Source: a virus. From it: 64,000 nt of DNA. Below the pieces are notes generated by a model. The model was given only the letters and a program-made list of their open reading frames with translations. It ran no database searches and had not been told where the DNA came from. Positions 10,944-25,519 of this stretch are shown in pieces. The stretch covers positions 5,350 to 69,349 of the IMG/VR virus record IMGVR_UViG_3300031965_000003, one strand, 5' to 3'. Position 1 is the stretch's first letter. Each line of letters begins with the position of its first letter. The position numbers and the translations under genes are program-made.

Positions 10944-11876
10944 CTATGCGGCCTTCGCGATCTCAGTCTCGCGCTTCTGCTTCACTTCGATGATCTTACT
11001 CTTTTCCTTGTGTGCCAGAGCATTGATCGCAGCATTGTTCGACTTGAAGAGTCGGTCAATTTCTTGTTGCGTCGTTGCTTCCTGAATCATTCTGATAAAT
11101 TCAGAAATATTGTTTTGCTGTTCACCTTCGGTTGCCTGTTGTCCGTCATCCGATTCAACCTTGAAATCGCCCTCAATAACCGGCTCCGGCAGCATGAATC
11201 GCTCCTGGCGGTCGATAATTCGGTTGGTATCGCTTCGGATCTGGTTGACCTCAGCAACAGTGGCAATCGGGTACAGCCGCACCGGCCAGTGTGTCATTAT
11301 CTTGCCGGTGCTGGGATCGGGAATCTTCCGCTCCTCGCGGCTCATCATCATTGGCACCCATGAGATTCGGCCAAACAAATACTTGGCCATCTCGATGCCG
11401 CTCCTGAGATCGATGTCGGTATTAATCGAGCCAGATGATAATTGATAAACCCCACCCATGTTGATATCCGGCAGCACAAGCATGATGTCGATGCGGGCGC
11501 TGCACTTGAATTGCTTCGCGAACTCGCAGAACTCCGGCGACGGGCACTCGATCTGCGTGATCTGTCCCTTATCGTCGCGACGCTCCGCTATCTCCCCATT
11601 ACCTTGGCACTTCAGCCGCTGATTGCCGCCATAGACCGCATAGTACTGGCGCAGAAACATTTCTTCGTTCTCCACGGCGATCATCACCGGCAATGCCTTT
11701 GGCCGATCACCGAACATTTTCTTCACCTCGTCGGGAACGACGAAATAGTCGGTCTCAGCTGGATACTCCTTGCCGTTGCTCGCGGTCTTTTTGATGCCAA
11801 GTCTAATCTTACCCAGCCGTGGTAGCCGGATTACGTTCTGCGGTTTGTTCTCGCCCTTGATCCTTGTGAAATTCAT
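10944..11876 (-). CDS. phiC31 gp3-like recombination directionality factor family / recombination protein
   Basis: IRLPRLGKIRLG N-terminal signature, ETDYFVVP, QRLKCQGNGE, GGVYQLSSGS. Confidence 0.75.
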   Translation of the reverse strand: MNFTRIKGENKPQNVIRLPRLGKIRLGIKKTASNGKEYPAETDYFVVPDEVKKMFGDRPKALPVMIAVENEEMFLRQYYAVYGGNQRLKCQGNGEIAERRDDKGQITQIECPSPEFCEFAKQFKCSARIDIMLVLPDINMGGVYQLSSGSINTDIDLRSGIEMAKYLFGRISWVPMMMSREERKIPDPSTGKIMTHWPVRLYPIATVAEVNQIRSDTNRIIDRQERFMLPEPVIEGDFKVESDDGQQATEGEQQNNISEFIRMIQEATTQQEIDRLFKSNNAAINALAHKEKSKIIEVKQKRETEIAKAA

Positions 11877-13215
11877 TTTTAACCTCGTCTCCCGTTACGC
11901 CATTGTTTACTGCTGCAACTTCGCCATTTTCAATATAAACGCCGACCTTACCGCTCTCGTCGACCACTTCCATCCAGACCTGATAGTCTCTGTCTTGCGC
12001 CATCTCCTCGATGATCCGCATCGACTCGGAATCGAGCAGTGAGCCGTCAGTAATTCTTAGGACGTGTAATTTGGGATTGAGTGACATGGCCATCGCCATG
12101 CTAACCCTGAGTTGCTCGGCGCCGGAGGCTTGGGAGAGAGGCAAACCGTCGTAGGTCACCGCACCATTGCCAAAGCCTAGGGCATCCAACGGGAATTGCG
12201 CCGAGCTGATCAGTTCGGCCTTTTGCTGATCAATGCTGTCGATCGCCTTGGTGAGTTGATCAACCTTGGCATCGGTCGTCGCCAGTTCGGCCTTAAGACG
12301 CTTCATTTCCTTGACAGCGCGCTCGACCTCTGCTGACTTCCTCTCGAATTCGGCCAGCCGCTGCCGGATCAACTTGTTTTTCTTGCCAGCCTCTCTGATC
12401 TCGGCCTGTATGCCCGTGATGTCTGGAACCGTGATGGCGTCACGGTCGGTTGCAAGTGCATTGCGGATCTGTCGGACCTCGGAGAGTTGCACTTGCTTTT
12501 GGTCACGCTGCGCGGTCAACTTTATGATTTGGTCGTTTAGATTGTCGATGTCCCGAGTCAGCTCTCCGCCTCTGCGTTCGGCGTCGTCGGTCTTCATTTT
12601 GAAGCCATCCCGCTTCTGTTGCAGCGCCATGGCCTCATTGACTTTCTCCACCAAGTCGGCGACATCCGTTTCCTTTTCATCAACCAATGGCGGCAGCAAA
12701 GGCACGACGACAGAGGTCTCCTGTGCTTCGAGCCGCTTGGCGTCACGATTGATCTGGGTCCGCTCTTCGTAGAGCGCCTGTCTCTGCTGATCGAGCTTTG
12801 TCGTATCAATGCCGGTGAGCGCGCGCAGGGTATCGAATTGCTTTCGCTGATCCATCTGCATGAACTCCAAAGGATCGAAACTGAGTCGACCGATCAAACC
12901 GTCGAGCATGGTCTGCGGCGATTTGAAACGGAGACCGTCCTTGTTTTCGATCACCAGTGCGGTAGAACTCTCATTGAAACTGCGCTTGACGATGATGTCG
13001 CCGAGGTCGAGTTCTACGGCGGCTTTCTTCTGACCGCTGCGGATCGGTTTTTCCGGGATATTTTGTTGACCTCCCAACGCCCAGTAGATCGCATCCAGTA
13101 CGGAGGTTTTGCCGGCACTGTTCTTGCCGGTTATCTTGACGATATTACCGTTGGGAACGATTTCGACGGCGACGAGCTTTTTGATGTTCTCGGCGCGAAA
13201 TTTTATGATCCTCAT
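11809..13215 (-). CDS. SMC/Rad50-like AAA ATPase with coiled coil
   Basis: Walker A GKNSAGKTS, long coiled coil, signature ASGAEQL, ITDGSLLD. Confidence 0.9.
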   Translation of the reverse strand: MRIIKFRAENIKKLVAVEIVPNGNIVKITGKNSAGKTSVLDAIYWALGGQQNIPEKPIRSGQKKAAVELDLGDIIVKRSFNESSTALVIENKDGLRFKSPQTMLDGLIGRLSFDPLEFMQMDQRKQFDTLRALTGIDTTKLDQQRQALYEERTQINRDAKRLEAQETSVVVPLLPPLVDEKETDVADLVEKVNEAMALQQKRDGFKMKTDDAERRGGELTRDIDNLNDQIIKLTAQRDQKQVQLSEVRQIRNALATDRDAITVPDITGIQAEIREAGKKNKLIRQRLAEFERKSAEVERAVKEMKRLKAELATTDAKVDQLTKAIDSIDQQKAELISSAQFPLDALGFGNGAVTYDGLPLSQASGAEQLRVSMAMAMSLNPKLHVLRITDGSLLDSESMRIIEEMAQDRDYQVWMEVVDESGKVGVYIENGEVAAVNNGVTGDEVKNEFHKDQGREQTAERNPATTAG

Positions 13216-14195
13216 GACTTCGATCCTTTCTTGGCCATTGATTTCACGTTGAATCGCTCAGATGGTACTTTTTCGATTGCGTCTGGCGGCACCAGTTCCT
13301 CGATATACTTTTTTCGCTCACTGATGCTGATACTAATAAGATATTCCCCGGCACGCCCCGACTGCGCGTTAGCTTCCTTGAGTGCGGCTTTTAGCTGCCC
13401 TTTAAGTACATCTCGCTCCTTGCCGATTTCCGTTTCCTGCGCGCCCAACTCCTTGTAGTAGCGTGCCGTGGTTTCGAGTTCTTCGGCTAGCGCAACGTTC
13501 TCGGATAACGCCTTGACTTCCGCGACATAATTGCTCCAGCAGTGTTCCTGCCAGCGGCAATATCCGCAGTGCCAGTCGTCGAAATCATAAGGCCGCGGCG
13601 GTATCTCTCCGTCAGCCGCCATGCGCTCGACATTTTCAAACATGGCGATATCGGCGAGGGCCTGAGCCTCGTCGTACCGAATCGTAAACTCCTTCATCGT
13701 CGCCGTGTTCTTGTTCTTGTACAGAATTATGCCTTCGACGATGGGAAGCCCGGCTTTAGCCAAACCGTGTAGATAAAGATTTGCTTGCCGACGATGGTCG
13801 TCTAGAGGTTCGTCTTTGAGTCGCTCGAAACCGAAATGATTGATCGATTTGATTTCCAGTAGTCGGGTATATTCGAAGGGATCCGTGACTAAGCCGTCAA
13901 TCTCGCCGTCAAGTTTCTTGTCGCCGATCATGGCGATGAAGATGCGCTGCTTTGCGCCCTTGAGTTCGTCTAAACGAAATACCGTTTTGCGGATATGATC
14001 CTTGATCAATTTCTCATGAGTATTGCCATCCTCAAAGACAAGTAACGTTCGGCCAGGGAAACGATCAGGTTCAACCGCCGTGGCATGGTAGACCAAGGCA
14101 CGGACACATTTTCCGACGCTGCTAGGCCGTGGAAAATACGGACCTTGCTCTTCCTGATTATCGGCTGCATTGCGCGTGATTAGTTCAACCAACAT
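13212..14195 (-). CDS. Cas4-like PD-(D/E)xK exonuclease (phage recombination type)
   Basis: RPSSVGKC, GNTHE, DGEIDG, LLEIKS, RQANLY, DDWHCGYCRWQEHC; start moved to ATG 14195. Confidence 0.85.
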   Translation of the reverse strand: MLVELITRNAADNQEEQGPYFPRPSSVGKCVRALVYHATAVEPDRFPGRTLLVFEDGNTHEKLIKDHIRKTVFRLDELKGAKQRIFIAMIGDKKLDGEIDGLVTDPFEYTRLLEIKSINHFGFERLKDEPLDDHRRQANLYLHGLAKAGLPIVEGIILYKNKNTATMKEFTIRYDEAQALADIAMFENVERMAADGEIPPRPYDFDDWHCGYCRWQEHCWSNYVAEVKALSENVALAEELETTARYYKELGAQETEIGKERDVLKGQLKAALKEANAQSGRAGEYLISISISERKKYIEELVPPDAIEKVPSERFNVKSMAKKGSKS

Positions 14196-14631
14196 TGCGC
14201 AGATCCTTTTCCTTGTGCGGGCAAGGTAGTCCATCTTTTGTCGAACAGTTGCAGTTCCAACACAAAATAGTGAATTCGTCTTTCGGCCAACCTAATTTGG
14301 CAAGTGTCATGAGAAGACTAGTCGTGCTCTTTGTGTGCTCACGTCTCCATCTATGACCGCCGCCGTTTTTATGTTCCAAAGTAAGAAATCGCGGCTCAGT
14401 TTCACCGCAACAATTACAGCGACTTCCATACGCATGAATCATCTCCTCACGCAGTTGTCGGCTCCTACGTTGCCACCAAATTGACACTTTTTTTGAGCAG
14501 GATTTGCATCGGCTGTGCTTACCTGGAGACAGTGCGGGATTCTTTCCGCAGGCCCAACACAGTCCGTCCGCCTTCTTTTTGTCTTGCCATTTGATTCGAT
14601 CGGATGGTTTGGTTTTATAGCCTTTTGGCAT
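14185..14631 (-). CDS. Free-standing HNH homing endonuclease
   Basis: YGSRCNCCGETEPRFLTLEHKNGGG...ILCWNCN, with an N-terminal CxxC...CxxC zinc finger. Confidence 0.8.
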   Translation of the reverse strand: MPKGYKTKPSDRIKWQDKKKADGLCWACGKNPALSPGKHSRCKSCSKKVSIWWQRRSRQLREEMIHAYGSRCNCCGETEPRFLTLEHKNGGGHRWRREHTKSTTSLLMTLAKLGWPKDEFTILCWNCNCSTKDGLPCPHKEKDLRNVG

Positions 14632-14684
14632 CAGCCCTCCGTCTGCGATTGCCCGGCATTTTTCGTAATCAATTCGACGAGCAT
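14631..14684 (-). pseudogene. Orphan 17-codon duplicate of the exonuclease N-terminus
   Basis: MLVELITKNAGQSQTEG* versus exonuclease MLVELITRNAADNQEEQG; its TGA overlaps the HNH ATG. Confidence 0.75.
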
Positions 14685-14714
14685 TCCCTTGCCCTTTCCG
14701 TTAAGTTGAGCCCG

Positions 14715-14894
14715 TTAATCTTTGCCTGTCTTCTTTTCAGTCGACGATAATTCGTGAAATAAACCTTCATCCTGACAATAGTCGCACTGAGACACGCCGT
14801 CACATTCGCCGTCCAAATGCTTCTGCTTACGAGCCTCTTCGATTAGGTCCTGTTCCCACTCGTGCCGGCAATTGTAGCGGTCAGGTATATGCAT
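14715..14894 (-). CDS. Hypothetical acidic Cys/His protein (59 aa)
   Basis: Manual translation MHIPDRYNCRHEWEQDLIEEARKQKHLDGECDGVSQCDYCQDEGLFHELSSTEKKTGKD. Confidence 0.55.
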   Translation of the reverse strand: MHIPDRYNCRHEWEQDLIEEARKQKHLDGECDGVSQCDYCQDEGLFHELSSTEKKTGKD

Positions 14895-14902
14895 CGCTTA
14901 CT

Positions 14903-15106
14903 CTATTCAGTGCGCCAGTAGCACGGATGCTCACGATCCAACTCGATCAAATCTGCAACGCTTATCTGCACCGTGCCGGCATTCAGGCTTTCCTGACACA
15001 TAAAAAGCCCTTGCCAACAACTTGCTGTCAGGCATTTATCGCAGACGGTGATTAAATCATCGAGTCGATTTTTCATCTGAAATTTACGAAATTGTATGTT
15101 GCTCAT
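14903..15106 (-). CDS. Hypothetical Cys-rich protein
   Basis: ITVCDKCLTASCWQGLFMC; start trimmed to ATG 15106 (15076 also possible). Confidence 0.6.
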   Translation of the reverse strand: MSNIQFRKFQMKNRLDDLITVCDKCLTASCWQGLFMCQESLNAGTVQISVADLIELDREHPCYWRTE

Positions 15107-15109
15107 ATC

Positions 15110-15145
15110 GAGTGAACGCCGACCTGAAGAAAAAGGGATTAAGAC
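15110..15145 (+). CRISPR. Solitary CRISPR-like repeat unit A (type III-style repeat, not an array)
   Basis: GAGTGAACGCCGACCTGAAGAAAAAGGGATTAAGAC (36 nt); the GACCTGA..AA.AAGGGATTAAGAC core and ATTAAGAC 3' end match the type III repeat family pattern as recalled; near-identical copy at 23499-23533. Confidence 0.7.
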
Positions 15146-15151
15146 TTTCCT

Positions 15152-15197
15152 CTTTCGTTCGCATGTCGTAGCAGAGACCGACATTGTTGCGACTCAT
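15152..15197. repeat. 46-bp imperfect direct repeat, copy 1 (adjacent to CRISPR-like repeat A)
   Basis: 39/46 identical to 15504-15549; first 20 nt (CTTTCGTTCGCATGTCGTAG) identical. Confidence 0.9.
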
Positions 15198-15199
15198 AG

Positions 15200-15493
15200 T
15201 TAGCATCCCTCATCGTGATAGCCGTCTTGCACGACGATCGGATCTCCACCAGCGTTGATGCCCTTGCCCTTGGATTCGACGCGCATAAGAATTATCGCAG
15301 AGTCAATATCGGGAGCCGAAACGGTATGGCAACGACCCCACTTGTCAAAGAGAGAGAGTTTCAATGTTACCAAGCGATCACAGTTGCTATGTTTCCACAG
15401 TTCCACGCCGATACAATAAATAGGCGTGGCGTCAAGTTCGTCTATTAAGTCTCTCGCTTTAGCTTCTGCTTCTTTAAGATCGTAAATCATCAC
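15200..15493 (-). CDS. Hypothetical acidic protein flanked by the 46-bp repeats
   Basis: 97-aa ORF with GGGGAG RBS. Confidence 0.65.
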   Translation of the reverse strand: MMIYDLKEAEAKARDLIDELDATPIYCIGVELWKHSNCDRLVTLKLSLFDKWGRCHTVSAPDIDSAIILMRVESKGKGINAGGDPIVVQDGYHDEGC

Positions 15494-15503
15494 GCTCTCC
15501 CCA

Positions 15504-15549
15504 CTTTCGTTCGCATGTCGTAGGGGAGACCCAAATTGTCGCGCTTCAT
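15504..15549. repeat. 46-bp imperfect direct repeat, copy 2
   Basis: See copy 1; sits just upstream of the RBS of 15200-15493. Confidence 0.9.
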
Positions 15550-15550
15550 A

Positions 15551-16528
15551 TCAGATAGCTTTCCCGCAGATATCGACTTCCCATATCGCGGCGCAGACCC
15601 CAGCAGCTTTAATCTTTTCTGGATACTTCGCGTTTTTGTGAACTTTGATCTGCGAGACTTTTAACGGACAGGCCATGAAATGTTTTGCCGCCGAATTAAA
15701 TTTCAGCGTGTGAATGGGTGACGGCGAGAAATGCAAACCGCCACCACACTCTGCTTCGCCGCCGTCCCAGTCTGCCGCTTGTGGTTTACCGCCCGACGTG
15801 TAAAAAATTCCGCGAATGCGGGCGTTGTCGGTAGAAAAATCCTCGTCAACACCCTTAAAGAGCACCGCGACGCCCTTTTTAATATCAACGCCGTAAAAAT
15901 CGCACCACTCTTTGGCGGTAGCAATTTCTGGAATTCGAATCTGTACGCCGCCTTTGGCTTTTACTTTTTGGCCATGAATAGTGACGGCGTTAAAGTCGGA
16001 AGCCGTCACCTGCGCGGAGTCGGAAGCCGTCACCTGCGCGGAGCCGTAAGCCCTCACCTGCGCGGAGCCGGAAGCCCTCACCTGCGCGGAGCCGGAAGCC
16101 CTCACCTGCGCGGAGCGCAAAGCCGTCACCTGCGCGGAGTCGGAAGCCGTCACCTGCGCGGAGTCGGAAGCCGTCACCTGCGCGGAGCCGAAAGCCCTCA
16201 CCTGCGCGGAGCCGAAAGCCGTCACCTGCGCGGAGCGCAAAGCCGTCACCTGCGCGGAGCCGTAAGCCGTCACCTGCGCGGAGTCGGAAGCCGTCACCTG
16301 CGCGGAGTCGGAAGCCCTCACCTGCGCGGAGCCGTAAGCCCTCACCTGCGCGGAGCCGAAAGCCCTCACCTGCGCGGAGCCGGAAGCCCTCACCTGCGCG
16401 GAGTCGGAAGCCGTCACCTGCGCGGAGCCGTAAATTTGAAAACTTTCCGTTCCAGTGCATTCTGGATAATCGCCGGATTCCAGCGCAGCGGTGAGTTCAC
16501 TCTGCGTTTTTACCAAAACCGTTTTCAT
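15551..16528 (-). CDS. Octapeptide-repeat beta-solenoid protein with DUF7666-like C-terminal domain
   Basis: 18 x AQV(T/R)AxxS followed by FKGVD...ECGGGLHFSPSP...KIKA. Confidence 0.75.
   Translation of the reverse strand: MKTVLVKTQSELTAALESGDYPECTGTESFQIYGSAQVTASDSAQVRASGSAQVRAFGSAQVRAYGSAQVRASDSAQVTASDSAQVTAYGSAQVTALRSAQVTAFGSAQVRAFGSAQVTASDSAQVTASDSAQVTALRSAQVRASGSAQVRASGSAQVRAYGSAQVTASDSAQVTASDFNAVTIHGQKVKAKGGVQIRIPEIATAKEWCDFYGVDIKKGVAVLFKGVDEDFSTDNARIRGIFYTSGGKPQAADWDGGEAECGGGLHFSPSPIHTLKFNSAAKHFMACPLKVSQIKVHKNAKYPEKIKAAGVCAAIWEVDICGKAI
15992..16423. repeat. 18 x 24-bp tandem repeat
   Basis: Unit (minus strand) GCGCAGGTGA(C/G)GGCT...CTCC. Confidence 0.95.
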
Positions 16529-16537
16529 ATCAATTCT

Positions 16538-16741
16538 TTACGCCCTCCCCACCAGTGGCCGGATCGCCGGCAACTCCTCAAACGACTCAAAATCGCGAGC
16601 TAGCGCCTGACGGTTCAAAACGTCAATCTGACCGTCGAGTTGGCCTAATTTGTAGGCCCAGATGAGTTTGCTTTCCGGCGACAACTCGATAAGTCCCCGA
16701 TATTCGCTAATCAGTTCGTCGTAGGTTGTGATTTTGTTCAT
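16538..16741 (-). CDS. Hypothetical protein
   Basis: 67-aa ORF with GGGGG RBS. Confidence 0.6.
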   Translation of the reverse strand: MNKITTYDELISEYRGLIELSPESKLIWAYKLGQLDGQIDVLNRQALARDFESFEELPAIRPLVGRA

Positions 16742-16868
16742 AAAGACCCCCTTGCCTGTTTTGTTACAGCCCCATGCCGTGACGAACTTGACCCCTTCAC
16801 CCGGTGTACGCTAGGCAATATTATTCGACACAATTTTAACCCGCAGGGCGGGCAGAATATTCCGCGTT

Positions 16869-17090
16869 TCATCTATCACCCCCATCATGCGGGTTGTTCA
16901 GCGCCTCGTGATAGCAGTCCCAGTGCGCCCACGTTTGTTCTTTAGTGTAAAAGTCGTGGCCGTATTTGGTGCTGTCGTCAGTTGGCGCAATGGGTTTCTT
17001 GCAGAAGACGCAGTCGCCTTTACTAAATACCAGCGCCTGTTCAGGAAATTTCCGACTGCCATAATTTAGACGATCGCGATTGACTGCCAT
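16869..17090 (-). CDS. Hypothetical Zn-finger protein
   Basis: CVFCKKPI...HWDC. Confidence 0.6.
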   Translation of the reverse strand: MAVNRDRLNYGSRKFPEQALVFSKGDCVFCKKPIAPTDDSTKYGHDFYTKEQTWAHWDCYHEALNNPHDGGDR

Positions 17091-17092
17091 CT

Positions 17093-17284
17093 TTACAGCC
17101 CCATGCTCTCAAACCACTTGAACAGCCAGTTATCGAATCGCCCCCTGACGACGAAGAGAACGGCGGCAACGAGTCCTAGCGAGACGACAACCGTAGTCAA
17201 CGTCAGCAGATCCTCAGAGATGCCTGGTTTCTGATTGCGGTTCGGCTTCGGTGCAAAATCAGAGATCAGTATTTTTCTGCTCAT
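17093..17284 (-). CDS. Small membrane protein
   Basis: One hydrophobic helix LLTLTTVVVSLGLVAAVLFVV. Confidence 0.55.
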   Translation of the reverse strand: MSRKILISDFAPKPNRNQKPGISEDLLTLTTVVVSLGLVAAVLFVVRGRFDNWLFKWFESMGL

Positions 17285-17640
17285 TGTGACTCCAATTCTT
17301 TTAGTCGCTTTTCTCGTTCAGCTATCTCCGCGCGGAGCCTATCTATTTCGGCGGCTCGTTTCATTTTCGCGTCATATTCGAGTCGAGCTGTCTTTTGGAC
17401 TTCGGTCTCAATCGGCACCGCCGTAAAGTATTTGTCGCCACGAGGATCGGGACGAACCGTAATGGAGTCGAAGCCCATCTTTTTGCCCAGCTTCGCCCAT
17501 GCCGCGTTAGCGTTTTCTTGAGGACTAGGTGACCTATAGTCACCAATCATCATCACTCGCGTGGGCTTACTACAGGCGTCGAGCAACTCGGTCAAATCCT
17601 CTTCGGACATCTCGTATTGCACTCGTGGATTCACAGTCAT
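17281..17640 (-). CDS. Hypothetical phage protein
   Basis: 119-aa ORF with ATGA overlaps. Confidence 0.65.
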   Translation of the reverse strand: MTVNPRVQYEMSEEDLTELLDACSKPTRVMMIGDYRSPSPQENANAAWAKLGKKMGFDSITVRPDPRGDKYFTAVPIETEVQKTARLEYDAKMKRAAEIDRLRAEIAEREKRLKELESQ

Positions 17641-17728
17641 GCCCTCCGAACACTGAGCACGATTAATCTCTGATACGGTTTGAGATCGACAAGGCGGCGA
17701 CGACGGAAGATTAGTGAGAGCAGTTTCT

Positions 17729-18388
17729 TCATTCGCCCCTCCTCAGTCCCACCCCATGACAGGTCTCGCAGACATAGATCGGCATGCCAGAAATCCAGCC
17801 CCTGTGCCTGAGCGCCGCGTAGCATTCCGGACATGCCGCGCTTGGTCCCTTGTCGCCATGCAGAATCGGCTGACATTTTGTTTCTTCTTTGAGACTTGGA
17901 TTGCATTGGAGATTGATCGCCTCTTTATTTTTATAATAGTGCCGAAGCGCAGCTACTCTTGCGCAGGTACGACAGGTTCGTGCCCCAGTTACGTTAACGA
18001 AAACATTGTCACCGGAATATGGATGCCCATGAGGGCAATGCGTCTTGGCGAGTTTAGCCGCTATCGCCCGCTGTCGATTCTTCTCGGTAAACCCATTTCG
18101 GTGTTTCGCTTTTCGATCCGCCATATTGTCTTGATGTGTCCCAAGAAAAAGATGTTCGGGATTAACGCAATTACAAACATCGCAGTGATGGAGAACGTGG
18201 AGACCGTCTGTTATCGCGCCATGAGTCAATTCCCAGGCGATCCTGTGTGCTCTCACTGTTTTGCCCTTCCAATGCACCAATCCGTAGCGATGATCATTGC
18301 GGCCGCCAATGGCGCCGGTCCAGAGCCAACAATTCATGGTTTTATTGACGTAGTTCCAAAAATTATCGACGTTCATTTTTGACACCAT
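17729..18388 (-). CDS. HNH homing endonuclease
   Basis: CWLWTG...YG...RAHRIAWELTHG...VLHHCDVCNCVNPEHLFLGTHQDNMAD, then THCPHGHPY...CRTC; start trimmed. Confidence 0.88.
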   Translation of the reverse strand: MVSKMNVDNFWNYVNKTMNCWLWTGAIGGRNDHRYGLVHWKGKTVRAHRIAWELTHGAITDGLHVLHHCDVCNCVNPEHLFLGTHQDNMADRKAKHRNGFTEKNRQRAIAAKLAKTHCPHGHPYSGDNVFVNVTGARTCRTCARVAALRHYYKNKEAINLQCNPSLKEETKCQPILHGDKGPSAACPECYAALRHRGWISGMPIYVCETCHGVGLRRGE

Positions 18389-18659
18389 CGCTATGGATAA
18401 TCGGAAGTGCGTAGTTTTGAGCGAAATAAAAATTTTGAAGAATGTGATCGACCGAGTCCTGATCGCCACTGGCTACAGCCTTGACGAGTCTCGCCTTGAG
18501 GTCATCGAGACGAATGACCGGGATTTTGAGATCACGCTTCGGCTTCGGGTGCGGAGATTTGATCATGGGTGATTTCCGATTGAGTTGCCTACGCAGCACC
18601 CTGCTCTTGGGCGTTGATGATTTTCCGCGCTTTGCGGATGAGAGCCGAATGTCTGGCAT
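18363..18659 (-). CDS. Hypothetical basic protein
   Basis: ORF track; true start may be internal. Confidence 0.45.
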   Translation of the reverse strand: MPDIRLSSAKRGKSSTPKSRVLRRQLNRKSPMIKSPHPKPKRDLKIPVIRLDDLKARLVKAVASGDQDSVDHILQNFYFAQNYALPIIHSDGVKNERR

Positions 18660-18768
18660 AATAAGCAGCCGCTCGACATGCCCGACCGCAGTATTTCTGC
18701 CATTCGCTCACCGGCACAAATTCCCGCTTGCACCGTCTGCATTTTTTCGGCTTTACTTTTGGAATCAT
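18589..18768 (-). CDS. Small Zn-finger protein, first gene after internal promoter
   Basis: CRRCKREF...QKYCGRAC; ATG 18768 with GGAG RBS. Confidence 0.65.
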   Translation of the reverse strand: MIPKVKPKKCRRCKREFVPVSEWQKYCGRACRAAAYYARHSALIRKARKIINAQEQGAA

Positions 18769-18810
18769 AGTGGTACTCCTTAGCACGTGCGTCATAAATT
18801 CAAATGTTCT

Positions 18811-18848
18811 ATGACGTATGTAATACGTCATGTCGCATAGTTTGTCAA
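18811..18848 (-). promoter_or_regulatory. sigma70-like promoter with palindromic operator
   Basis: TTGACA (18843-18848), 17-nt spacer, TATTAC (18820-18825); perfect inverted repeat ATGACGTAT-GTA-ATACGTCAT at 18811-18831. Confidence 0.65.
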
Positions 18849-18883
18849 GGGGGTATTTAAAAAAATGTTGATGACGCAGATTT

Positions 18884-19141
18884 TCAATCAATTATTGGGC
18901 AATTGAGTAGCGCTGCATAGTGCGATTGTAATTGCACCGATTGTTCAAGCGCCGCATTGAGTCTCTCAATTGATACGATCCGTAAAGCCCAATAACCATC
19001 ACTGCGTTCAACCCATTCACCAAATTTAACGCTTCGACCTTGAGAGTTTTCGACTTCTATGAAGCGCCCGGATTCATGACTTGGCGGACCATCAAAAACG
19101 ATATCGATATAATCTATCGGCATGCGTTTTGTTTCGTTCAT
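18884..19141 (-). CDS. Hypothetical protein
   Basis: 85-aa ORF. Confidence 0.6.
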   Translation of the reverse strand: MNETKRMPIDYIDIVFDGPPSHESGRFIEVENSQGRSVKFGEWVERSDGYWALRIVSIERLNAALEQSVQLQSHYAALLNCPIID

Positions 19142-19551
19142 TTAAATCCTCGCTTTCTTTCTCTCCGATAGTCCGCTCGTTTACTCCCGACGTTGGCGTC
19201 CATATCGAGCTTGCGCATGTCGTAAAAACCCAAGCGTTCGCAGATTCTCATCATCTGGTGTGGGGTGTTTCGTAATTCATTAAATATCAGCGCCCCGGCA
19301 CAGTGAGGCGTTTCTTCCTTTGGCTGAAAGACTTCGAAGCCATCATCATCCTCGATGAGTTCGCAAGCCTTGTGACAACCGAATTCGCCGCTGGCATGTT
19401 CCACCAAACTAGCGAAAGTAAAGCCGCTGGTTTTCAGAAATGGGCATTCTTTACAGGGCGCCGTCATGGTGTAGTTCACGGGTCCTCGCTTTCTTTCTCG
19501 CGCCGGCTTAACGGACCGGCGCTGGAGGTTGACTAGACCTGCCGCTCCCAC
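19138..19551 (-). CDS. Cys-rich hypothetical protein (PCxxCPF...CHK...CAGA; DUF6283-like pattern)
   Basis: Motif pattern; real start probably near 19470. Confidence 0.55.
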   Translation of the reverse strand: MGAAGLVNLQRRSVKPARERKRGPVNYTMTAPCKECPFLKTSGFTFASLVEHASGEFGCHKACELIEDDDGFEVFQPKEETPHCAGALIFNELRNTPHQMMRICERLGFYDMRKLDMDANVGSKRADYRRERKRGFK

Positions 19552-19578
19552 TCGGACGGGAGGTCCGCCCGGAGGAAG

Positions 19579-19920
19579 TCAAAAAGTCAGCTCGTCAAAA
19601 TCCGGATGCTCGCCGGCACGCTTGAGCGCGAGACCGCGCTCCTTATCGAGCGACTCCAGTTTAGCGACTAAACCGGCGCCATCGATCGACCATTTTTCCG
19701 CGAGGCCATCGCCCTCGCAGGCATCGAGGATCTCGTGCGCTATCTGGCCGCCGAGACCGGGCCGGATCTGGTGGCCGGTAAACGCATCGACTAGATTGAG
19801 GTCTGCGTGAGACTCGTCGAGTATCGTACCGTTGAGCACGTCTAAGATTGCAGCTTTTTCGTTGCGGCTAAAATTAATCATCGGTGATACCCTCCCACGC
19901 TTCTGAAAATTCACGTTCAA
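19579..19920 (-). CDS. Hypothetical acidic protein
   Basis: ORF track; start probably ATG near 19882. Confidence 0.55.
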   Translation of the reverse strand: MNVNFQKRGRVSPMINFSRNEKAAILDVLNGTILDESHADLNLVDAFTGHQIRPGLGGQIAHEILDACEGDGLAEKWSIDGAGLVAKLESLDKERGLALKRAGEHPDFDELTF

Positions 19921-20515
19921 AAAATAAAGAGGCTAGACCAGAGACTTGTTTTAGCCGGATCACTTCATCCCGGTCAAGACCGACTTCGCGAGATATTTTT
20001 TCATCGCTCCAATTGCGGCGGACCAGATCTACCACAATCGCGCTCATGGCATCCACCTGATGTTTGCCACGTGCCCGATTGTGTCGGATAGTAGATGCTA
20101 TCCGATCGCCACGATCAGTGCGCTCATCATTGATCACCGTGATTGGCAAACGACCGTGGACACGATCCTTGATTACAGCCACTTCACGGCCAACGCGGTT
20201 GCGATGGAACCCGTCAACCACTTCATAATCATTTTCCTCTCTGAAGGTAACAATCGGCTGAGTGTAACCGTCCTCTTCGATTGATGTCTGCAACAGGCGC
20301 ATCTCTGGGCTAGCCACGCGGTTTGGGTTGTAATCGTTAGCGCGCACCAGCTCCTGTTTCACCCAAAGAACGCAGTCCACCGGCTCATGTTTCAGCGGAC
20401 TGTACTCACGCAGCATGAGTTTGATTTCATTGATTGCGTCAATACGAGCATCATCATCTAATTCGCGCAACCCTTGTAGCGCAGAGGCTACTATGTCGAT
20501 TAGATTGTCCCCCAT
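19874..20515 (-). CDS. ibrB: IbrB-like ParB/Srx domain protein
   Basis: HEPVDCVLWV, ANDYNPNRVASPEMRLL..SIEEDGYTQPIV, VVDGFHR, ASTIRHNRARGKH. Confidence 0.88.
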   Translation of the reverse strand: MGDNLIDIVASALQGLRELDDDARIDAINEIKLMLREYSPLKHEPVDCVLWVKQELVRANDYNPNRVASPEMRLLQTSIEEDGYTQPIVTFREENDYEVVDGFHRNRVGREVAVIKDRVHGRLPITVINDERTDRGDRIASTIRHNRARGKHQVDAMSAIVVDLVRRNWSDEKISREVGLDRDEVIRLKQVSGLASLFFEREFSEAWEGITDD

Positions 20516-21705
20516 CGCATCCTCCGTTTTTTCATAATCTTTCGATAGCGCTCGTAGGCTTGACTATTGGTCTGGGTAAAGCTCAGACCTTTAAACCAGT
20601 AGTCGTTGCGCAATAGCGCTTTACATATACGCCGCCAGGACGGGGCTTTATGTTGAGCTTCCAATTTAGGATCGGCCTCATCGGGGATTCCGCTCTGGTA
20701 GCCGCGATCTCCATACCAGTGCAGAAACACGGCGATTTTGTTTTCGTAGTGATCCTTCGATCCCGCCGGCATTGTAGCGAGTAAAAATTTAGCGAAGCTC
20801 TCCCATGTATGATTTTCAGGCTTGCTGATTTTTAATCGACCGAGAATGTTGCCGCTCTCACGCGCATATAGAGCGCCGGAATTGGCGCCAGCCACACGCG
20901 CCACGACTTTGCCCCAGGTCTCCGGCTCGATGACATGATACAGCCAAAGACCTTTGCGCTGGTCATCTCCATAAGGCTGGCAGATACGCATCTGATGGAT
21001 AGTCAAACCGGCCTGATACATGCGGTCGTAGAGAGCGTTATAACAGACACCTTCCCGCGCCGTGTAGGTCCACAGATCCTCGGTGCGCCAATCATAGATT
21101 GGATAGATATTATAGACCGCGCCGCTTTTCCATGTCGTCCATTGTTTGTCATCGAAGCGCGTCTTGTCCGCGATCAACGTGCGAAACCGATTAAGCGATT
21201 CGTCCGCGCGAATGCCGACGAAACAGGCGGTCAGTTTATTCCCGCCGTACCAGTGGCCGAAAAACTCCACAAACTCCTCGAACTCCATGCCTCGATGAAA
21301 AAATGGGAACATCGATCCGTCGGTTATTGCGAGCTTTGGCGGCTGGCGCACCCAATCATCGCGCCGGTTCGGGTCCCAGCATTGCCAGCGTGGCTCGATC
21401 ATGCTGACGGCGTTGCGCAGGTTGATAGGCAGGGCGATCCAGTACGGCTCGATCTGATTTTTATAAATATTATAGCAGCGCTCAGCATGCGTCATCGTCA
21501 GTTTGTATTGCGCTTCAAGATCGATCAGCAGCAGTCCGACTTTGCGGTTGCGTTTCTTGGCCTCGGCCATAACCAAGTGCAGCATCACAGTGGAGTCTTT
21601 GCCCGCCGAAAAACTCAAGTAAACTTTCTCGAACGTGTCGAACACCCACGATATCCGCTGTCGCACTGCGGTCAACACGTCTAGGCCGAGCGGACGCTTA
21701 GGCAT
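20500..21705 (-). CDS. ibrA: IbrA-like PAPS-reductase/PP-loop protein with DUF3440
   Basis: SFSAGKDS PP-loop, VGIRADESLNR, YPIYDW, MRICQPYGDDQRKGL, PSWRRICKALLRNDYW. Confidence 0.9.
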   Translation of the reverse strand: MPKRPLGLDVLTAVRQRISWVFDTFEKVYLSFSAGKDSTVMLHLVMAEAKKRNRKVGLLLIDLEAQYKLTMTHAERCYNIYKNQIEPYWIALPINLRNAVSMIEPRWQCWDPNRRDDWVRQPPKLAITDGSMFPFFHRGMEFEEFVEFFGHWYGGNKLTACFVGIRADESLNRFRTLIADKTRFDDKQWTTWKSGAVYNIYPIYDWRTEDLWTYTAREGVCYNALYDRMYQAGLTIHQMRICQPYGDDQRKGLWLYHVIEPETWGKVVARVAGANSGALYARESGNILGRLKISKPENHTWESFAKFLLATMPAGSKDHYENKIAVFLHWYGDRGYQSGIPDEADPKLEAQHKAPSWRRICKALLRNDYWFKGLSFTQTNSQAYERYRKIMKKRRMRWGTI

Positions 21706-22067
21706 CGCATCACCTCGTCGCGCGACAGCGTTTCTTTTTCAAAGCCGTTGTACCGGCAAAAATATCGGTTGAACTTTTTCCAGCCGAGAGGTTCGTGAAC
21801 CTCGTAAATCTTGCCGTCATCGAGAATAAAGTGCAGATACACACCGCGCGATGCCGCCCCATTAGATTGAGAATAGTCTTTGGCTCCTCTAAGGAACTGC
21901 CGATCAAACCCGCGCTGCGAGTCGAGCCCTTTAATCTCCGCTACCCAAGGCCGCTGAGGCAGCGGCCGGAATAGATGTTTCGGCGGAGTCAGTCCATGTT
22001 TTTTGTGCATGGAAATCTCGTAGTGACGATTCTCCGCGACGAATTCCAAGCCGAGCGAATGTTTCAT
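21681..22067 (-). CDS. Hypothetical protein directly upstream of ibrA
   Basis: PWVAEIKGLD...RQFLRGAKDYSQSN...SRGVYLHFIL; overlaps the ibrA start. Confidence 0.7.
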   Translation of the reverse strand: MKHSLGLEFVAENRHYEISMHKKHGLTPPKHLFRPLPQRPWVAEIKGLDSQRGFDRQFLRGAKDYSQSNGAASRGVYLHFILDDGKIYEVHEPLGWKKFNRYFCRYNGFEKETLSRDEVMRCLSVRSA

Positions 22068-22675
22068 CTCGCCCCTCCCGGCGCCGGCAAGGCGAGAGCT
22101 TTGGCCGCGCCATCGATCAAGCCTGCCATCTTTTTATATTCAAGGCTCATCGATTGAAACTGCCCCCCCGTCTCCTGCGCGAGTAATCGTAAAAACTCCT
22201 CGCCGGCATGAGGTCTAGGCCCAACATAAAAAACATCAATTTGGACACCCCGGCTTTGCATCTGGCGGGCCTCGGCGAGCGCCGCGCTGGTGTCATCAGG
22301 GAGGCCATCGCTGATTAACACACAATGTTTTGCCCCCTTTTGCCGCGCGCTCGCCAGCGCTTCGTGCAACGGAGTCGATCCCCGTGGCTCTGGGATGTAA
22401 TCCGCGACATGCTCGCCACGGCCATTCCACGGATCGGGAAAAATAATCTGAGTAAATCCAACGCGCTGTCGCAACGCAGTGACGATCTCGCGCAGTGCGT
22501 CGATTTTCGCGCGCCCAGGCTCTACATAATCAGCCATAGATCCTGAGCAGTCGAGCAGTAAAAAAGAGTGGTTTGCCTGCTCTGCGCGGCGCTGTTGTTG
22601 TTGCCTGTCTCTGACGGTCTCAGAGAGGGATTTTCTTTGCAGAGAATTTTGCAATTTGGCGACTAAATCGGTCAT
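22064..22675 (-). CDS. von Willebrand factor A domain protein
   Basis: MIDAS motif LLLDCSGSM...GSTPLHEAL...LISDGLPD. Confidence 0.9.
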   Translation of the reverse strand: MTDLVAKLQNSLQRKSLSETVRDRQQQQRRAEQANHSFLLLDCSGSMADYVEPGRAKIDALREIVTALRQRVGFTQIIFPDPWNGRGEHVADYIPEPRGSTPLHEALASARQKGAKHCVLISDGLPDDTSAALAEARQMQSRGVQIDVFYVGPRPHAGEEFLRLLAQETGGQFQSMSLEYKKMAGLIDGAAKALALPAPGGAR

Positions 22676-22683
22676 GACTCCTC

Positions 22684-23436
22684 CTATAGCGCAAGTGCAA
22701 CGGCCTTTTTGATCGCCGCTTTCAGCGCTGTCGCGCCTTCCGCATCCGTGCCGGGCCGAAACGCCAACTCTTTGAGTTTCTGATAGGTCGCCCAGGCTGA
22801 CTCTGCCTCGGTATTCAGTTCGCCCGTCTCCGCGCGATGGATAATCAAGTCCTCTAGTGCGAGCAACGCCGCGAGTTCCTTCCCGTCAGAATTTAACCCG
22901 GCGGCTTCGGATGATGGCGCATCGGCCACGGGCGCCGATTGCGCGCCAGACTGCTCGATGATTTGATAATCCCACGCCGGTTGATCTTTCAGGGCGATGC
23001 CGCGCGGGACATCGCGAATTTCCACTATTGCGTTTTTTGCGACGATCGCGGGATTTTTGCGCGAGCCGCCACTACCAAGATCACCATCACTAACGATCAC
23101 GCCCGTCCCCAAGCGCACGCCGCCGTCGCGGCCATACTTGAGTTGCGCAATTTGCCTGCCGGCGACAAACAAGGAATCGTAATGACCGTTGATCCCGATG
23201 CGGATCGTCACTAGATCAACTGCCGCCTCGGTCCCGTCAACACCGAATATTTCTCGGCACAGTCCCCTGACTCGCGCCTCGTCTCGCGGATCAAACGACC
23301 ATTCTCGGCTCTCAGCCTGCCAAGTGCCGCCTAATTTTTTTGCCGCTGCGGGGAAATCGGGGTGATAAGGGCTGGAGATGCGGAGACGTTGACGACCATC
23401 TTTTAGGACGACCGTCCGATAATTGATATTTGACAT
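22684..23436 (-). CDS. Hypothetical phage early protein
   Basis: SPYHPDFPAAAKKLGGTW...WSF N-terminal module; GGAGG RBS. Confidence 0.7.
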   Translation of the reverse strand: MSNINYRTVVLKDGRQRLRISSPYHPDFPAAAKKLGGTWQAESREWSFDPRDEARVRGLCREIFGVDGTEAAVDLVTIRIGINGHYDSLFVAGRQIAQLKYGRDGGVRLGTGVIVSDGDLGSGGSRKNPAIVAKNAIVEIRDVPRGIALKDQPAWDYQIIEQSGAQSAPVADAPSSEAAGLNSDGKELAALLALEDLIIHRAETGELNTEAESAWATYQKLKELAFRPGTDAEGATALKAAIKKAVALAL

Positions 23437-23447
23437 GGTATCCTCCC

Positions 23448-23474
23448 CGCTCCGGGTCAGCGGAGCGTTTTTTT
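23448..23474 (+). terminator. Hairpin with T7 tail (plus-strand terminator; on the minus strand it overlaps an RBS)
   Basis: CGCTCCG-GGTCAG-CGGAGCG followed by TTTTTTT. Confidence 0.55.
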
Positions 23475-23479
23475 AGGCT

Positions 23480-23497
23480 CGGTTAGCTCCGGGCGGG
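23480..23497. repeat. Early-region leader motif, copy 1 (minus strand CCCGCCCGGAGCTAACCG)
   Basis: Shared with 24964-24991 and 25284-25311; the 11-nt core also occurs at 24038-24048. Confidence 0.85.
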
Positions 23498-23498
23498 C

Positions 23499-23533
23499 GA
23501 GTGAACGACGACCTGAAGAAAAGGGATTAAGAC
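23499..23533 (+). CRISPR. Solitary CRISPR-like repeat unit B
   Basis: GAGTGAACGACGACCTGAAGAAAAGGGATTAAGAC; differs from unit A by one substitution and one A deletion. Confidence 0.7.
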
Positions 23534-23569
23534 CATGCTGCACACTCACCGCGTGGCAATAACACGTCT

Positions 23570-23854
23570 TCATTCCTCCAAGAGCAAGAAGCCTTCTGGG
23601 CGATCATTTTTTGCATTATTAAAGTAGATTCTGGTTGTCATACAATTCCGATCAAATGTAAGCGATTTGGTTTTCAGAGTTTTACAACCGACCCAACCGC
23701 TATGTTTCAGGGCACGCATTATGGTTTTATTGTCACAATCCTGATCATCGGGTAAGGTACAAACATGAGATGTTTTTAACACATTAAAAACGTTCCACCC
23801 GTCCTTTTTGGACCCCCATTTTTCATAGATGTAAACTCTCCATGTCCGTTTCAT
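23570..23854 (-). CDS. Hypothetical protein
   Basis: 94-aa ORF in early operon. Confidence 0.65.
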   Translation of the reverse strand: MKRTWRVYIYEKWGSKKDGWNVFNVLKTSHVCTLPDDQDCDNKTIMRALKHSGWVGCKTLKTKSLTFDRNCMTTRIYFNNAKNDRPEGFLLLEE

Positions 23855-24036
23855 GTTAATTGCTCCTTACTCCTTAGTTGACTAATTTGACGTTGTGCAT
23901 ATTGCCAAATCAAACGTTCAGTGCAGTGAGCTTCCAGCATCTGCGACATGGCCGTTGCTAAAGCTTTCGCAGCACACTCACCATGTGTGGACGCCATTAT
24001 TTCCGCATAATAGTTAAATTTTTCATCTACATTCAT
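23851..24036 (-). CDS. Hypothetical protein
   Basis: ATG 24036 preceded by CCCGGAGCTAAA. Confidence 0.6.
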   Translation of the reverse strand: MNVDEKFNYYAEIMASTHGECAAKALATAMSQMLEAHCTERLIWQYAQRQISQLRSKEQLT

Positions 24037-24055
24037 TTTAGCTCCGGGTAGGCTA

Positions 24056-24406
24056 TTATATTTCCGAGATAACGTAGGTAATCGCCGGGCCTGCAATTGC
24101 TCGTAGACGATCAATACCTAGCTCAACCCCTCGATCTGCTGGGGTCAAAGCTAGCGGTATCTCAGTAACGCTAGCCGCCAATACGGCTAGTGACAGTGGG
24201 AGCACGCCAACCACGTGGCATGCCTCTACATCGTCAGGCTCCGCGTGAGCAATCACGCGAGCATTGTCAGTGACAAGCCCGCGCTCTCGCAGTAGCTCAA
24301 CGAGCGCCGGGTGACGAGTTACCACTACCACGGGCGCGCACGGTGCGCCGGCATCCGGTACGATGCCGCAAAAACGGCATCGACCGTTAGTAAATTTGTG
24401 TTTCAT
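24056..24406 (-). CDS. Csx16 (VVA1548)-family protein; candidate cyclic-oligoadenylate ring nuclease / anti-CRISPR
   Basis: VVVVTRHPALVELLRERG...VIAHAEPDDV...VVGVLPLSLA...LALTPADRGVEL matches recalled Csx16 consensus (SRHPGAIEWL..QG...VAHLD..D...VIGTLPVHLA...LDLP..LRG.EL) along its length. Confidence 0.78.
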   Translation of the reverse strand: MKHKFTNGRCRFCGIVPDAGAPCAPVVVVTRHPALVELLRERGLVTDNARVIAHAEPDDVEACHVVGVLPLSLAVLAASVTEIPLALTPADRGVELGIDRLRAIAGPAITYVISEI

Positions 24407-24422
24407 TTTCTTCTTGTTCTCC

Positions 24423-24728
24423 TTATTCTGTTTCCGCGGCGACAGCGTCGCTGAGCTTTTTCCGCTCGGCGGCTGTTAATTGCCGGATGCCGCCACGCTC
24501 GGTCTGGATCGCCGCGCTCTCGTACTGCGATTGTCCGCTTGATGCCACCAAGCGGACCACCTCCCTAAAACCCTGAGCCCGCACGGTCTGGCATAGATCA
24601 TCCCAGACAACCCACGCCTTATCGTGGATAGAGCGGGCTGGTTTAACCACTGTCACGGTCGCTGCTGTCGCGGGCAGAGGACTGCCAGGTCGCCACCCCG
24701 GCGGCGGTATTGTAGTAATTTTTATCAT
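24423..24728 (-). CDS. Hypothetical protein
   Basis: 101-aa ORF. Confidence 0.55.
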   Translation of the reverse strand: MIKITTIPPPGWRPGSPLPATAATVTVVKPARSIHDKAWVVWDDLCQTVRAQGFREVVRLVASSGQSQYESAAIQTERGGIRQLTAAERKKLSDAVAAETE

Positions 24729-24952
24729 TCTATTGTTCTTTTATTATAATATTCCGTAATGGAGCCTGGGTTGCCTAACCCCTCCCACTCCTCCCATAGA
24801 CAAGCCGCTGCGCGGGTAGCTGCTGTGGCATCCACGCTAGCCGCGATTGCCGAGATCGCGGCTAGATTGGCATCGCTGATCCAGCTGCGGCAGAGGGAGA
24901 CTGCCTCCCTCACGCCGATCCCTGCCGCGGTCAGGTCTAATACGTTAAACAT
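24725..24952 (-). CDS. Hypothetical protein
   Basis: GGAGG RBS directly after the leader hairpin. Confidence 0.6.
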   Translation of the reverse strand: MFNVLDLTAAGIGVREAVSLCRSWISDANLAAISAIAASVDATAATRAAACLWEEWEGLGNPGSITEYYNKRTIE

Positions 24953-24963
24953 TTCGTTCCTCC

Positions 24964-24991
24964 GTTCTCGGCCCGGTTAGCTCCGGGCGGG
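24964..24991. repeat. 28-bp direct repeat / leader hairpin, copy 2
   Basis: GTTCTCGGCCCGGTTAGCTCCGGGCGGG, identical to 25284-25311. Confidence 0.92.
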
Positions 24992-25011
24992 CTTGCTGGT
25001 GCGCTCCATTA

Positions 25012-25251
25012 TCAATCCAATCCTCGCGCAACAAATCCGCGTTGCGCCAACGGGACACAAATATGATCCTCACACGCGCCATTGACGACGCGGTAGATAG
25101 CTCCGCAGTCCTTGCAGGAGAGCGAGCCGTACTTAGTCGTCCGCGCCACATCATTATTTTTTAGGATATCAAACTCGGCCTTCCGCGCCGCCCAGCAACA
25201 TGGGCGCTGTGGGTCGTCAGTGTTACAAAAATGTCGGTATTTGCGTTCCAT
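25012..25251 (-). CDS. Hypothetical Cys-rich protein flanked by 28-bp repeats
   Basis: GGAGGAGG RBS; CC, CKDC, C..H.C. Confidence 0.65.
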   Translation of the reverse strand: MERKYRHFCNTDDPQRPCCWAARKAEFDILKNNDVARTTKYGSLSCKDCGAIYRVVNGACEDHICVPLAQRGFVARGLD

Positions 25252-25283
25252 TTTGTCCTCCTCCGCTCCGGTCGGGGAGCGTT

Positions 25284-25311
25284 GTTCTCGGCCCGGTTAG
25301 CTCCGGGCGGG
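25284..25311. repeat. 28-bp direct repeat / leader hairpin, copy 3
   Basis: Identical to 24964-24991; contains perfect stem GCCCGG-N6-CCGGGC. Confidence 0.92.
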
Positions 25312-25497
25312 TTTGGTGTTTTTTGGGTCGATTTTTTTTAGCACATCACCGGTTAGGCCTTGCGCGTGGGCGGTGCGTAGGCAGTGCGCATGGATCGCCT
25401 CGGCAATAAACCGCTGGAGGGTTACCCCAGTGCGCGCGGAGAGAAACTTAGCCGCCGCGTGAGTTGCGTTATCCAAACCTGTAATCCGTAGTTCCAT
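25297..25497 (-). CDS. Ribbon-helix-helix (Arc/CopG-like) regulator, first early gene
   Basis: Alternating strand ELRITGLD, then helices NATHAAAKFLSARTG and VTLQRFIAEAI. Confidence 0.65.
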   Translation of the reverse strand: MELRITGLDNATHAAAKFLSARTGVTLQRFIAEAIHAHCLRTAHAQGLTGDVLKKIDPKNTKPARS

Positions 25498-25519
25498 TTT
25501 TTGCCCCCTCCCTATGTAT

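Follow-up and report, generated by a model that had tools for sequence, protein, structure and literature searches.

A solitary type III-like CRISPR repeat beside one of two probable gene-start leaders in a phage early region

Solitary repeat units (SRUs) are widespread on viruses, and several of them act as RNA anti-CRISPRs (Racrs; Camara-Wilpert et al. 2023, PMC10651486). SRUs and Racrs are expressed as small RNAs, often directly downstream of a promoter (PMC10651486). Viral crRNA-like regulatory RNAs (Cracrs) and the host CreA/CreR elements pair a repeat with a 'spacer' of partial match, and in this way turn Cas proteins towards repression instead of destruction (Liu et al., bioRxiv 10.1101/2024.10.29.618823). 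In Cracrs, degenerate repeats flank the spacer-like segment; these RNAs work with type I or V-A effectors, which bind DNA, and they match promoters of host cas or toxin genes (10.1101/2024.10.29.618823). Virus mini-CRISPR arrays hold at least two repeats around a spacer against a competing virus (Medvedeva et al. 2019, PMC6858448).

We analysed 64,000 nt (hereafter the window), positions 5,350-69,349 of the 95-kb phage record IMGVR_UViG_3300031965_000003, which contains two CRISPR repeats, A and B (Table 1). Expression apart, their sequences fit the definition of a viral solitary repeat unit (PMC10651486). Like SRUs and Racrs, they are full-length, solitary, host-type repeats in intergenic positions on a virus, in a gene region of anti-CRISPR type. 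Unlike them, they belong to a type III family, lie antisense to the operon and have no recognisable promoter of their own. A further difference is that the self-match studied here lies in a neighbouring leader and not in the repeat. Compared with Cracrs, the phage has one repeat, a type III (RNA-targeting) context and a match to itself only, and no match was found to the host loci examined (L002-L024 and four whole genomes). As in the virus mini-arrays, repeat material stands on a virus without cas genes; however, the repeat is single and the match lies within the phage's own genome.

Phage genomes are mosaic, and in their early regions repeated intergenic boundary or leader sequences flank gene cassettes. 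The locus resembles such boundaries in that short gene-start sequences stand at consecutive boundaries and bracket an orphan gene, and a second leader family (CCCGGAGCTAA) does likewise. It differs in that only two copies are present, both known from this one genome.

Table 1. Coordinates of the repeats, leader segments and genes around the self-match, numbered from the first letter of the window
Feature	Position	Strand	Description
Repeat A	15110-15145	+ (crRNA sense)	36 nt, GAGTGAACGCC + GACCTGAAGAAAAAGGGATTAAGAC
Repeat B	23499-23533	+	35 nt; relative to repeat A, one substitution and one A fewer
Repeated leader module	23434-23498	-	65 nt; common to 25245-25310; begins where repeat B ends
Leader copy 1 (probable)	15146-15198	-	Sequence reading; the 'spacer-like segment' of the first-pass annotation
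Leader copy 2 (probable)	15498-15550	-	Sequence reading
97-aa orphan gene	15200-15493	-	Between both leader copies (cassette)
67-aa gene	14903-15106	-	phrog_10857 family (PHROG match E 6e-13)

Two solitary repeats of a type III-associated family

By its sequence, repeat A is a genuine type III CRISPR repeat. The 3' 25 nt, GACCTGAAGA(A/G)AAGGGATTAAGAC, are identical in 23 stretches of bacterial MAGs, most of them Nitrospira or Nitrospiraceae and the others Acidobacteria, Halothiobacillus, an alphaproteobacterium and Syntrophobacteraceae. Identity to the conserved part of Nitrospiraceae repeats is 27/27. The 5' 11 nt vary between hosts, and a metagenome scan did not find the phage version of this part (GAGTGAACGCC) in arrays. 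Host arrays reach ~70 units with a period of ~71 nt. At three loci, RAMP genes and a gene for a Card1-type CARF nuclease end ~100 nt before the array and point the same way; at a fourth, CARF-family genes and Cas6 are present. Degenerate terminal repeats sit 3' when the repeat is written in the sense '...ATTAAGAC'. This neighbourhood, together with the 3' degenerate repeats, marks the family as type III-associated and makes the + strand the crRNA sense of the phage copies.

A degenerate three-unit mini-array was seen in a Syntrophobacteraceae MAG contig (L005:5741-5912); CARF-family genes (Cas_NE0113, Cas_APE2256), a DUF2130 gene and a Cas6 gene lie around it. Nothing else found came as close to the 5' half of the phage repeats as the first unit of this mini-array (..GAACGAACGACGACCTGAAAAAGAAGGGATTAAGAC).

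The two phage repeats agree at 34/36 positions and lie 8.35 kb apart in the early region. They are full-length (36 nt, like host repeats) and solitary, with no second or partial repeat nearby. No third copy was found in the 95-kb record with up to 5 errors allowed in the 25-nt core, nothing repeat-like lies downstream of 15146-15200, and a scan of IMG/VR with the 3' part of the repeat returned no match. In its crRNA sense repeat A is antisense to the phage mRNA and to every phage gene nearby, and a crRNA made from it would begin with the tag AUUAAGAC at 15138 (+).

Repeat A has a run of five A where repeat B has four. After this indel the two repeats fall in different reading frames, and conservation of the repeat as coding sequence was rejected on that ground. 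All tabulated host repeats have a 4-nt stretch after GAAGA (AAAA, AGAA, GGAA or AAAC), in a search whose pattern allowed 3 or 4 nt there. Repeat B may be a decaying copy.

Repeat B adjoins the 5' edge of another repeated leader module, exact to the base. This module contains a CCCGGAGCUAA hairpin, a CGCUCC..GGAGCG hairpin, GGAGGA and an ATG. When repeat B is deleted and the sequence is compared with 25245-25370, the alignment begins 1 nt from the junction and reaches the ATG. The repeated module lies on the side of repeat B opposite to the 'spacer' side; the sequence on the spacer side matches nothing else in the 95-kb record (best 12 nt, E 0.17). Both repeats are therefore found at the edges of repeated leaders, with the leader in spacer position in one case only. 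Some 8 kb from the self-match, the second leader family (CCCGGAGCTAA) stands before several early genes, with further sites at 24964-24998 and 24038-24048.

A guide and a decoy alike would require transcription of the + strand. A consensus scan found no + strand promoter near the repeats. The best upstream + strand sites on a weight matrix, which is sigma-70-like and may not be the host's, scored 5.2 for repeat A and 4.0 for repeat B; 45% and 63% of random windows, respectively, scored as high. On the same matrix, an early minus-strand promoter at 25552-25525 scored 13.6. On the + strand, each repeat is preceded at a distance of 30-50 nt by a terminator-like hairpin and a T-run (15046-15062 and 23448-23467); the hairpin before repeat B has 7 pairs, of which 6 are G-C, and is followed by seven T. 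In the mRNA sense, both hairpins come before ribosome-binding sites.

One explanation is that the repeats act only as Racr-like decoys, in which case + strand repeats would bind Cas6/Cas7; alternatively, their reverse complement in early mRNA would be antisense against the repeats of host pre-crRNA. In both forms the neighbouring sequence would be irrelevant. Their full length, solitude, near-identity and match to the Nitrospiraceae core speak for such a role. However, no + strand promoter was found, a Racr for type III is not reported in PMC10651486 (the main text of which does not contain the term 'type III'), repeat B lacks one A common to all tabulated host repeats, and no host repeat with the phage's 5' 11 nt was found. 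We consider a decoy-only role unlikely, in either form.

Similar gene starts on both sides of an orphan gene

The first-pass annotation had reported that the segment after repeat A (site 1, 15152-15197) is 39/46 identical to a second site in the same phage (site 2, 15504-15549), with a perfect 20-nt run. Sequence reading and a direct comparison by script reproduced both values, and the perfect run is the first 20 nt of the 46-nt match (CTTTCGTTCGCATGTCGTAG). A repeat search of the window showed that the full likeness extends over 50 nt, 15149-15198 against 15501-15550, with 42/50 identity (84%). Beyond these 50 nt, identity drops to 8/30 and 10/30, which is chance level. The 20-mer CTTTCGTTCGCATGTCGTAG occurs at two sites only in the window (0 expected in 100 shuffles), and nhmmer found two copies only of the 50-nt segment in the whole 95-kb record (E ~1e-16; next match E 1.6).

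Counted from the end of repeat A (15146 = spacer position 1), the mismatches fall at positions 2, 3, 6, 27, 28, 35 and 37, so that the mismatches near the handle described earlier (2, 3 and 6) are borne out. The 8 nt adjoining site 2 agree with the handle ATTAAGAC at 1/8. The match was also said to adjoin the ribosome-binding site of the 97-aa gene, and site 2 indeed abuts the Shine-Dalgarno sequence GGGGAGAG at 15495-15502. In a simulation, a perfect 20-nt run given 8 mismatches in 50 had P ~0.10. Random placement of the mismatches thus suffices; the run needs no special explanation, and we rejected the idea that the perfect block demands selection.

The boundaries of the likeness coincide with gene landmarks. 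It starts 3 nt past the end of repeat A, runs for 50 nt and ends at two TATG start codons, after the stops of the 97-aa and 325-aa genes. Host spacers (n=226) measure 30-40 nt with a median of 35, and the likeness outruns the longest of them by 17 nt. These last positions (15182-15198), past any host spacer length, are still 13/17 identical.

All genes around the self-match are on the minus strand. In leader copy 1, TATG (ATG 15197) stands 2 nt past the TAA of the 97-aa gene and is followed by 15 codons, MSRNNVGLCYDMRTK, and by a Shine-Dalgarno-like AAGAGGAAA (15146-15154). Next in mRNA order come the reverse complement of repeat A and GAT-ATG (15106) of the 67-aa gene. In leader copy 2, TATG (ATG 15549) stands 1 nt past the TGA of the 325-aa gene; the short ORF codes for MKRDNLGLPYDMRTK-VGRA-stop and ends in a TGA that overlaps the ATG of the 97-aa gene (TGATG; ATG 15490), before which stands the Shine-Dalgarno sequence GGGGAGAG. 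Both copies have the order stop, start, 15 codons and Shine-Dalgarno, before consecutive genes.

Given this layout, we think it probable that the two 50-nt segments are paralogous gene-start leaders and that repeat A is a separate, later insertion. The putative leader, with its purine-rich Shine-Dalgarno sequence, stands once before the 97-aa gene and once before the 67-aa phrog_10857 gene. The copies would be alike by descent, either through duplication or through recombination at a cassette boundary when the 97-aa gene arrived. The start/stop overlaps suggest a coupling role, in which ribosomes would likely pass from the upstream stop via the short bridging ORF to the next ribosome-binding site. 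Repeat A would have entered later as a precise 36-nt insertion between the Shine-Dalgarno sequence and the ATG of the 67-aa gene, and the leader would therefore happen to occupy the spacer position. We infer both this order of events and the coupling role from the sequence, and the order from one genome, since no relative with a comparable arrangement was found.

The gap between the leader-1 Shine-Dalgarno sequence and ATG 15106 is exactly the 36 nt of repeat A. Deleting the repeat in silico joins GAGGAAA to GATATG and places the Shine-Dalgarno sequence 6 nt before the in-frame ATG 15106. This layout parallels GGGGAGAG-CGTG-ATG at copy 2, and the leader alignment then crosses the junction. By a rough estimate, such a spacing between Shine-Dalgarno and ATG would be restored by chance in a few percent of cases. 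We take the repeat-deleted junction as an in-genome 'empty site', which would mean that the repeat was inserted into a pre-existing leader. A homologue of the 67-aa gene in L025 starts ~10 residues before the conserved LITVCDKC, behind a strong Shine-Dalgarno sequence. A counterpoint is that precise insertion of a full-length repeat would have happened twice, for which paralogous leaders offer no mechanism.

The repeats themselves may be a Racr-like counter-defence RNA of the phage, a role that is needless for explaining the self-match. Decoy or anti-repeat activity concerns the repeats and not the self-match, and it is compatible with an explanation by leaders.

Among 5.8 billion proteins the 97-aa protein matches only itself. 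It has no Pfam or PHROG family and no IMG/VR relative, and the ESM Atlas holds only low-confidence look-alikes (pLDDT 0.55). A cassette gene would be expected to look like this. The 97-aa protein is no paralogue of the 67-aa protein, and a simple tandem gene duplication was rejected. The adjacent 325-aa protein (15551-16528, -) contains ~18 copies of a 24-nt repeat (8 aa, GSAQV[RT]A-type, Pfam ALTTAQ) and, at its C terminus, a domain like DUF7666 (phrog_15773); the repeat is less numerous in homologues from three IMG/VR contigs.

The leader copies differ at seven positions within 15 shared codons. These differences fall in four codons, and all change the amino acid (S/K, N/D, V/L, C/P). There is thus no sign of selection on the peptide, and a conserved N-terminal peptide was rejected because every differing codon is non-synonymous. 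The mRNA folds predicted for the two copies are different as well, neither being unusually stable, and a stem that sequesters the Shine-Dalgarno sequence is predicted at copy 2 only. Folding of both leaders and of the + strand repeat-plus-flank revealed no shared structure (Z-scores -0.1 to -2.1), and no Rfam family was found at gathering thresholds within the window. Since neither peptide nor RNA fold is conserved, the leader is best described as a nucleotide-level gene-start module or an orphan fragment, and not as a conserved N-terminus. The first-pass annotation had offered a simpler alternative, in which a gene start was duplicated when the 97-aa gene was inserted. The boundaries favour that idea; the non-synonymous differences speak against it as a coding duplication and point to a nucleotide-level leader instead.

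A second inserted gene lies nearby. A 148-aa HNH-like ORF (14185-14631) is found between the duplicated gene starts MLVELITKNAG.. and MLVELITRNAA... Most differences between the flanks of this ORF, the orphan's MLVELITKNAGQ.. and the exonuclease's MLVELITRNAAD.., are synonymous, as would be expected if a homing-type insertion brought in a diverged copy of the 5' end of its target. Taken together, the HNH-like and 97-aa cases suggest that inserted genes flanked by duplicated gene starts are recurrent here. Within 14140-14690, the orphan start reads MLVELITKNAGQSQTEG-stop (ATG ~14684) and the exonuclease reads MLVELITRNAADN (ATG ~14195).

We searched for relatives in which the gene, the duplication and the repeat could be compared, as the first-pass annotation had proposed. 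IMG/VR, protein and metagenome searches turned up no phage that shares the arrangement, and no relative was found with the uninterrupted form (GAGGAAAGATATG) or with a single leader. Scanning IMG/VR with the shared 20-mer returned nothing. Homologues of the 67-aa and 325-aa genes lie in unrelated contexts, without leader or repeat. Four soil runs (X1-X4) compared with 12000-26000 gave contigs that were all short and contained identical pieces only; in these short contigs, no joint skipping the 97-aa gene or the repeat was found.

Soil metagenomes from several studies (dated 2019-2025) contain pieces identical to this phage, so the phage, or a strain nearly identical to it, is found repeatedly in soil samples. 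Outside the window, both ends of the record (G000:C1:1-190 and ~94490-95009) lie in a single kind of 12-nt tandem repeat, (CCGCCGAGTNAA)n. A long repeat probably interrupted the assembly there, and the genome may therefore be a closed circle, or its completeness may exceed the estimated 80%.

A guide RNA or a recombination scar as possible but unlikely sources of the self-match

The first-pass annotation had proposed that a repeat-plus-spacer RNA guides a host type III complex to the start of the 97-aa gene, by a logic similar to that of CreA. A + strand RNA of repeat A would be cut by Cas6 8 nt from the repeat end and loaded into the complex. Pairing of the guide at site 2, in the ribosome-binding region of the 97-aa gene, and at its own antisense site would then lead to repression or cleavage of these mRNAs with Cas10 off. 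Cas10 would stay silent at site 2 through mismatches 2, 3 and 6, and at site 1 through full pairing of tag and anti-tag.

The pairing geometry at site 2 is as first described, with nt 7-26 perfect. In TtCmr, pairing of nt 1-7 is needed for cOA synthesis and binding depends on segments at ~nt 13-29 (PMC8376896). The claimed geometry, binding without Cas10 activation, agrees with the nt 1-7 rule for cOA (PMC8376896); the pattern is compatible with such binding, and compatibility is no evidence of use. The 3' ends of type III crRNAs are trimmed by host nucleases (PMC8376896), so a single upstream repeat could in principle suffice for a guide. Because type III requires only an upstream repeat and 3' trimming, a + strand RNA, if transcribed, would work as a guide even if it had not evolved for that role. 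If the + strand is transcribed, mismatches 2, 3 and 6 would keep the phage from triggering immunity against itself.

Several observations oppose a guide. No + strand promoter stands out, and a terminator-like hairpin lies ~50 nt upstream. A spacer-length guide would have its boundary at the repeat end; the likeness starts 3 nt off, exceeds spacer length by 17 nt and stops at start codons. No second site matches the spacer side of repeat B. Moreover, the best target of such an RNA would be the perfectly complementary cis-antisense mRNA, tag included, and not the 39/46 site. The Cracr survey contains no case of a type III crRNA-like regulator (V-A, I-B, I-C, I-E and I-F only; bioRxiv 10.1101/2024.10.29.618823). 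The proposed guiding of a type III complex to the 97-aa gene start thus gains no positive support, given the lack of a promoter above background, the excess length and the matchless repeat B. The parallel with CreA also fails, with no second repeat, no match to a host cas or toxin promoter in the loci and genomes examined, and a type III instead of a type I or V-A context. We consider a regulatory guide of this kind very unlikely. The complete chain, in which a Cas6-processed antisense RNA loads Csm/Cmr and binds the ribosome-binding regions of two consecutive phage genes with Cas10 silent, is about equally unlikely.

The self-match could instead be the scar of an exchange with a host array. 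A host spacer would have matched the leader, and recombination between protospacer and spacer would have brought the repeat that adjoins the spacer into the phage genome. With an anti-tag then beside the protospacer, the phage mRNA would be read as 'self' by type III complexes. In both repeats the crRNA sense opposes the phage mRNA, a requirement for functional type III spacers, yet two-for-two agreement in orientation has a 25% chance expectation. The phage also encodes a PD-(D/E)XK/Cas4-like nuclease (13212-14234), with an adjoining 468-aa ORF (11809-13215) that by eye is a putative coiled-coil ATPase; the nuclease has no relative in IMG/VR.

Host sequences gave no trace of such a spacer. 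Compared with the whole phage, none of the 226 host spacers gave a match, and neither repeat flank matched the host loci L002-L024 (best 15/16, E 0.39). Comparing 14 kb of the phage with four whole host-type genomes yielded repeat-to-repeat matches only. A host spacer corresponding to the segment after repeat A, which the first-pass annotation had suggested looking for, was therefore found neither among the 226 spacers nor in host loci, and metagenome contigs searched with the 20-mer held no matching spacer. The 20-mer did occur in two metagenome contigs; both carry one unrelated chromosomal gene (..IYDMRTKEKEQ.., opposite strand) with no repeat nearby, and were set aside as a chance match.

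The structure of the insertions also argues against a scar. Exact full-length repeats have phage sequence on both sides, and an illegitimate second crossover would rarely give this twice. The duplication of the leader must still pre-exist, and recombination with a host spacer cannot by itself explain likeness past 40 nt. We regard a recombination scar as quite unlikely.

Implications for phage early regions and type III repeats

If the guide proposal were true, the phage would use a host type III complex as its own post-transcriptional regulator. This would be the first type III counterpart of crRNA-like regulatory RNAs and would matter greatly. Whatever follows a lone repeat counts formally as a 'spacer' in type III systems, and the boundaries of a self-match beside a solitary repeat should therefore be checked against gene landmarks before it is taken for a guide-target pair.

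If the two segments are instead paralogous gene-start leaders, phage early regions would be made up of cassettes bounded by repeated leaders, and a solitary type III repeat could sit precisely between a ribosome-binding site and a start codon. Paralogous leaders would bring no new mechanism; they would provide context for the study of possible type III RNA anti-CRISPRs.
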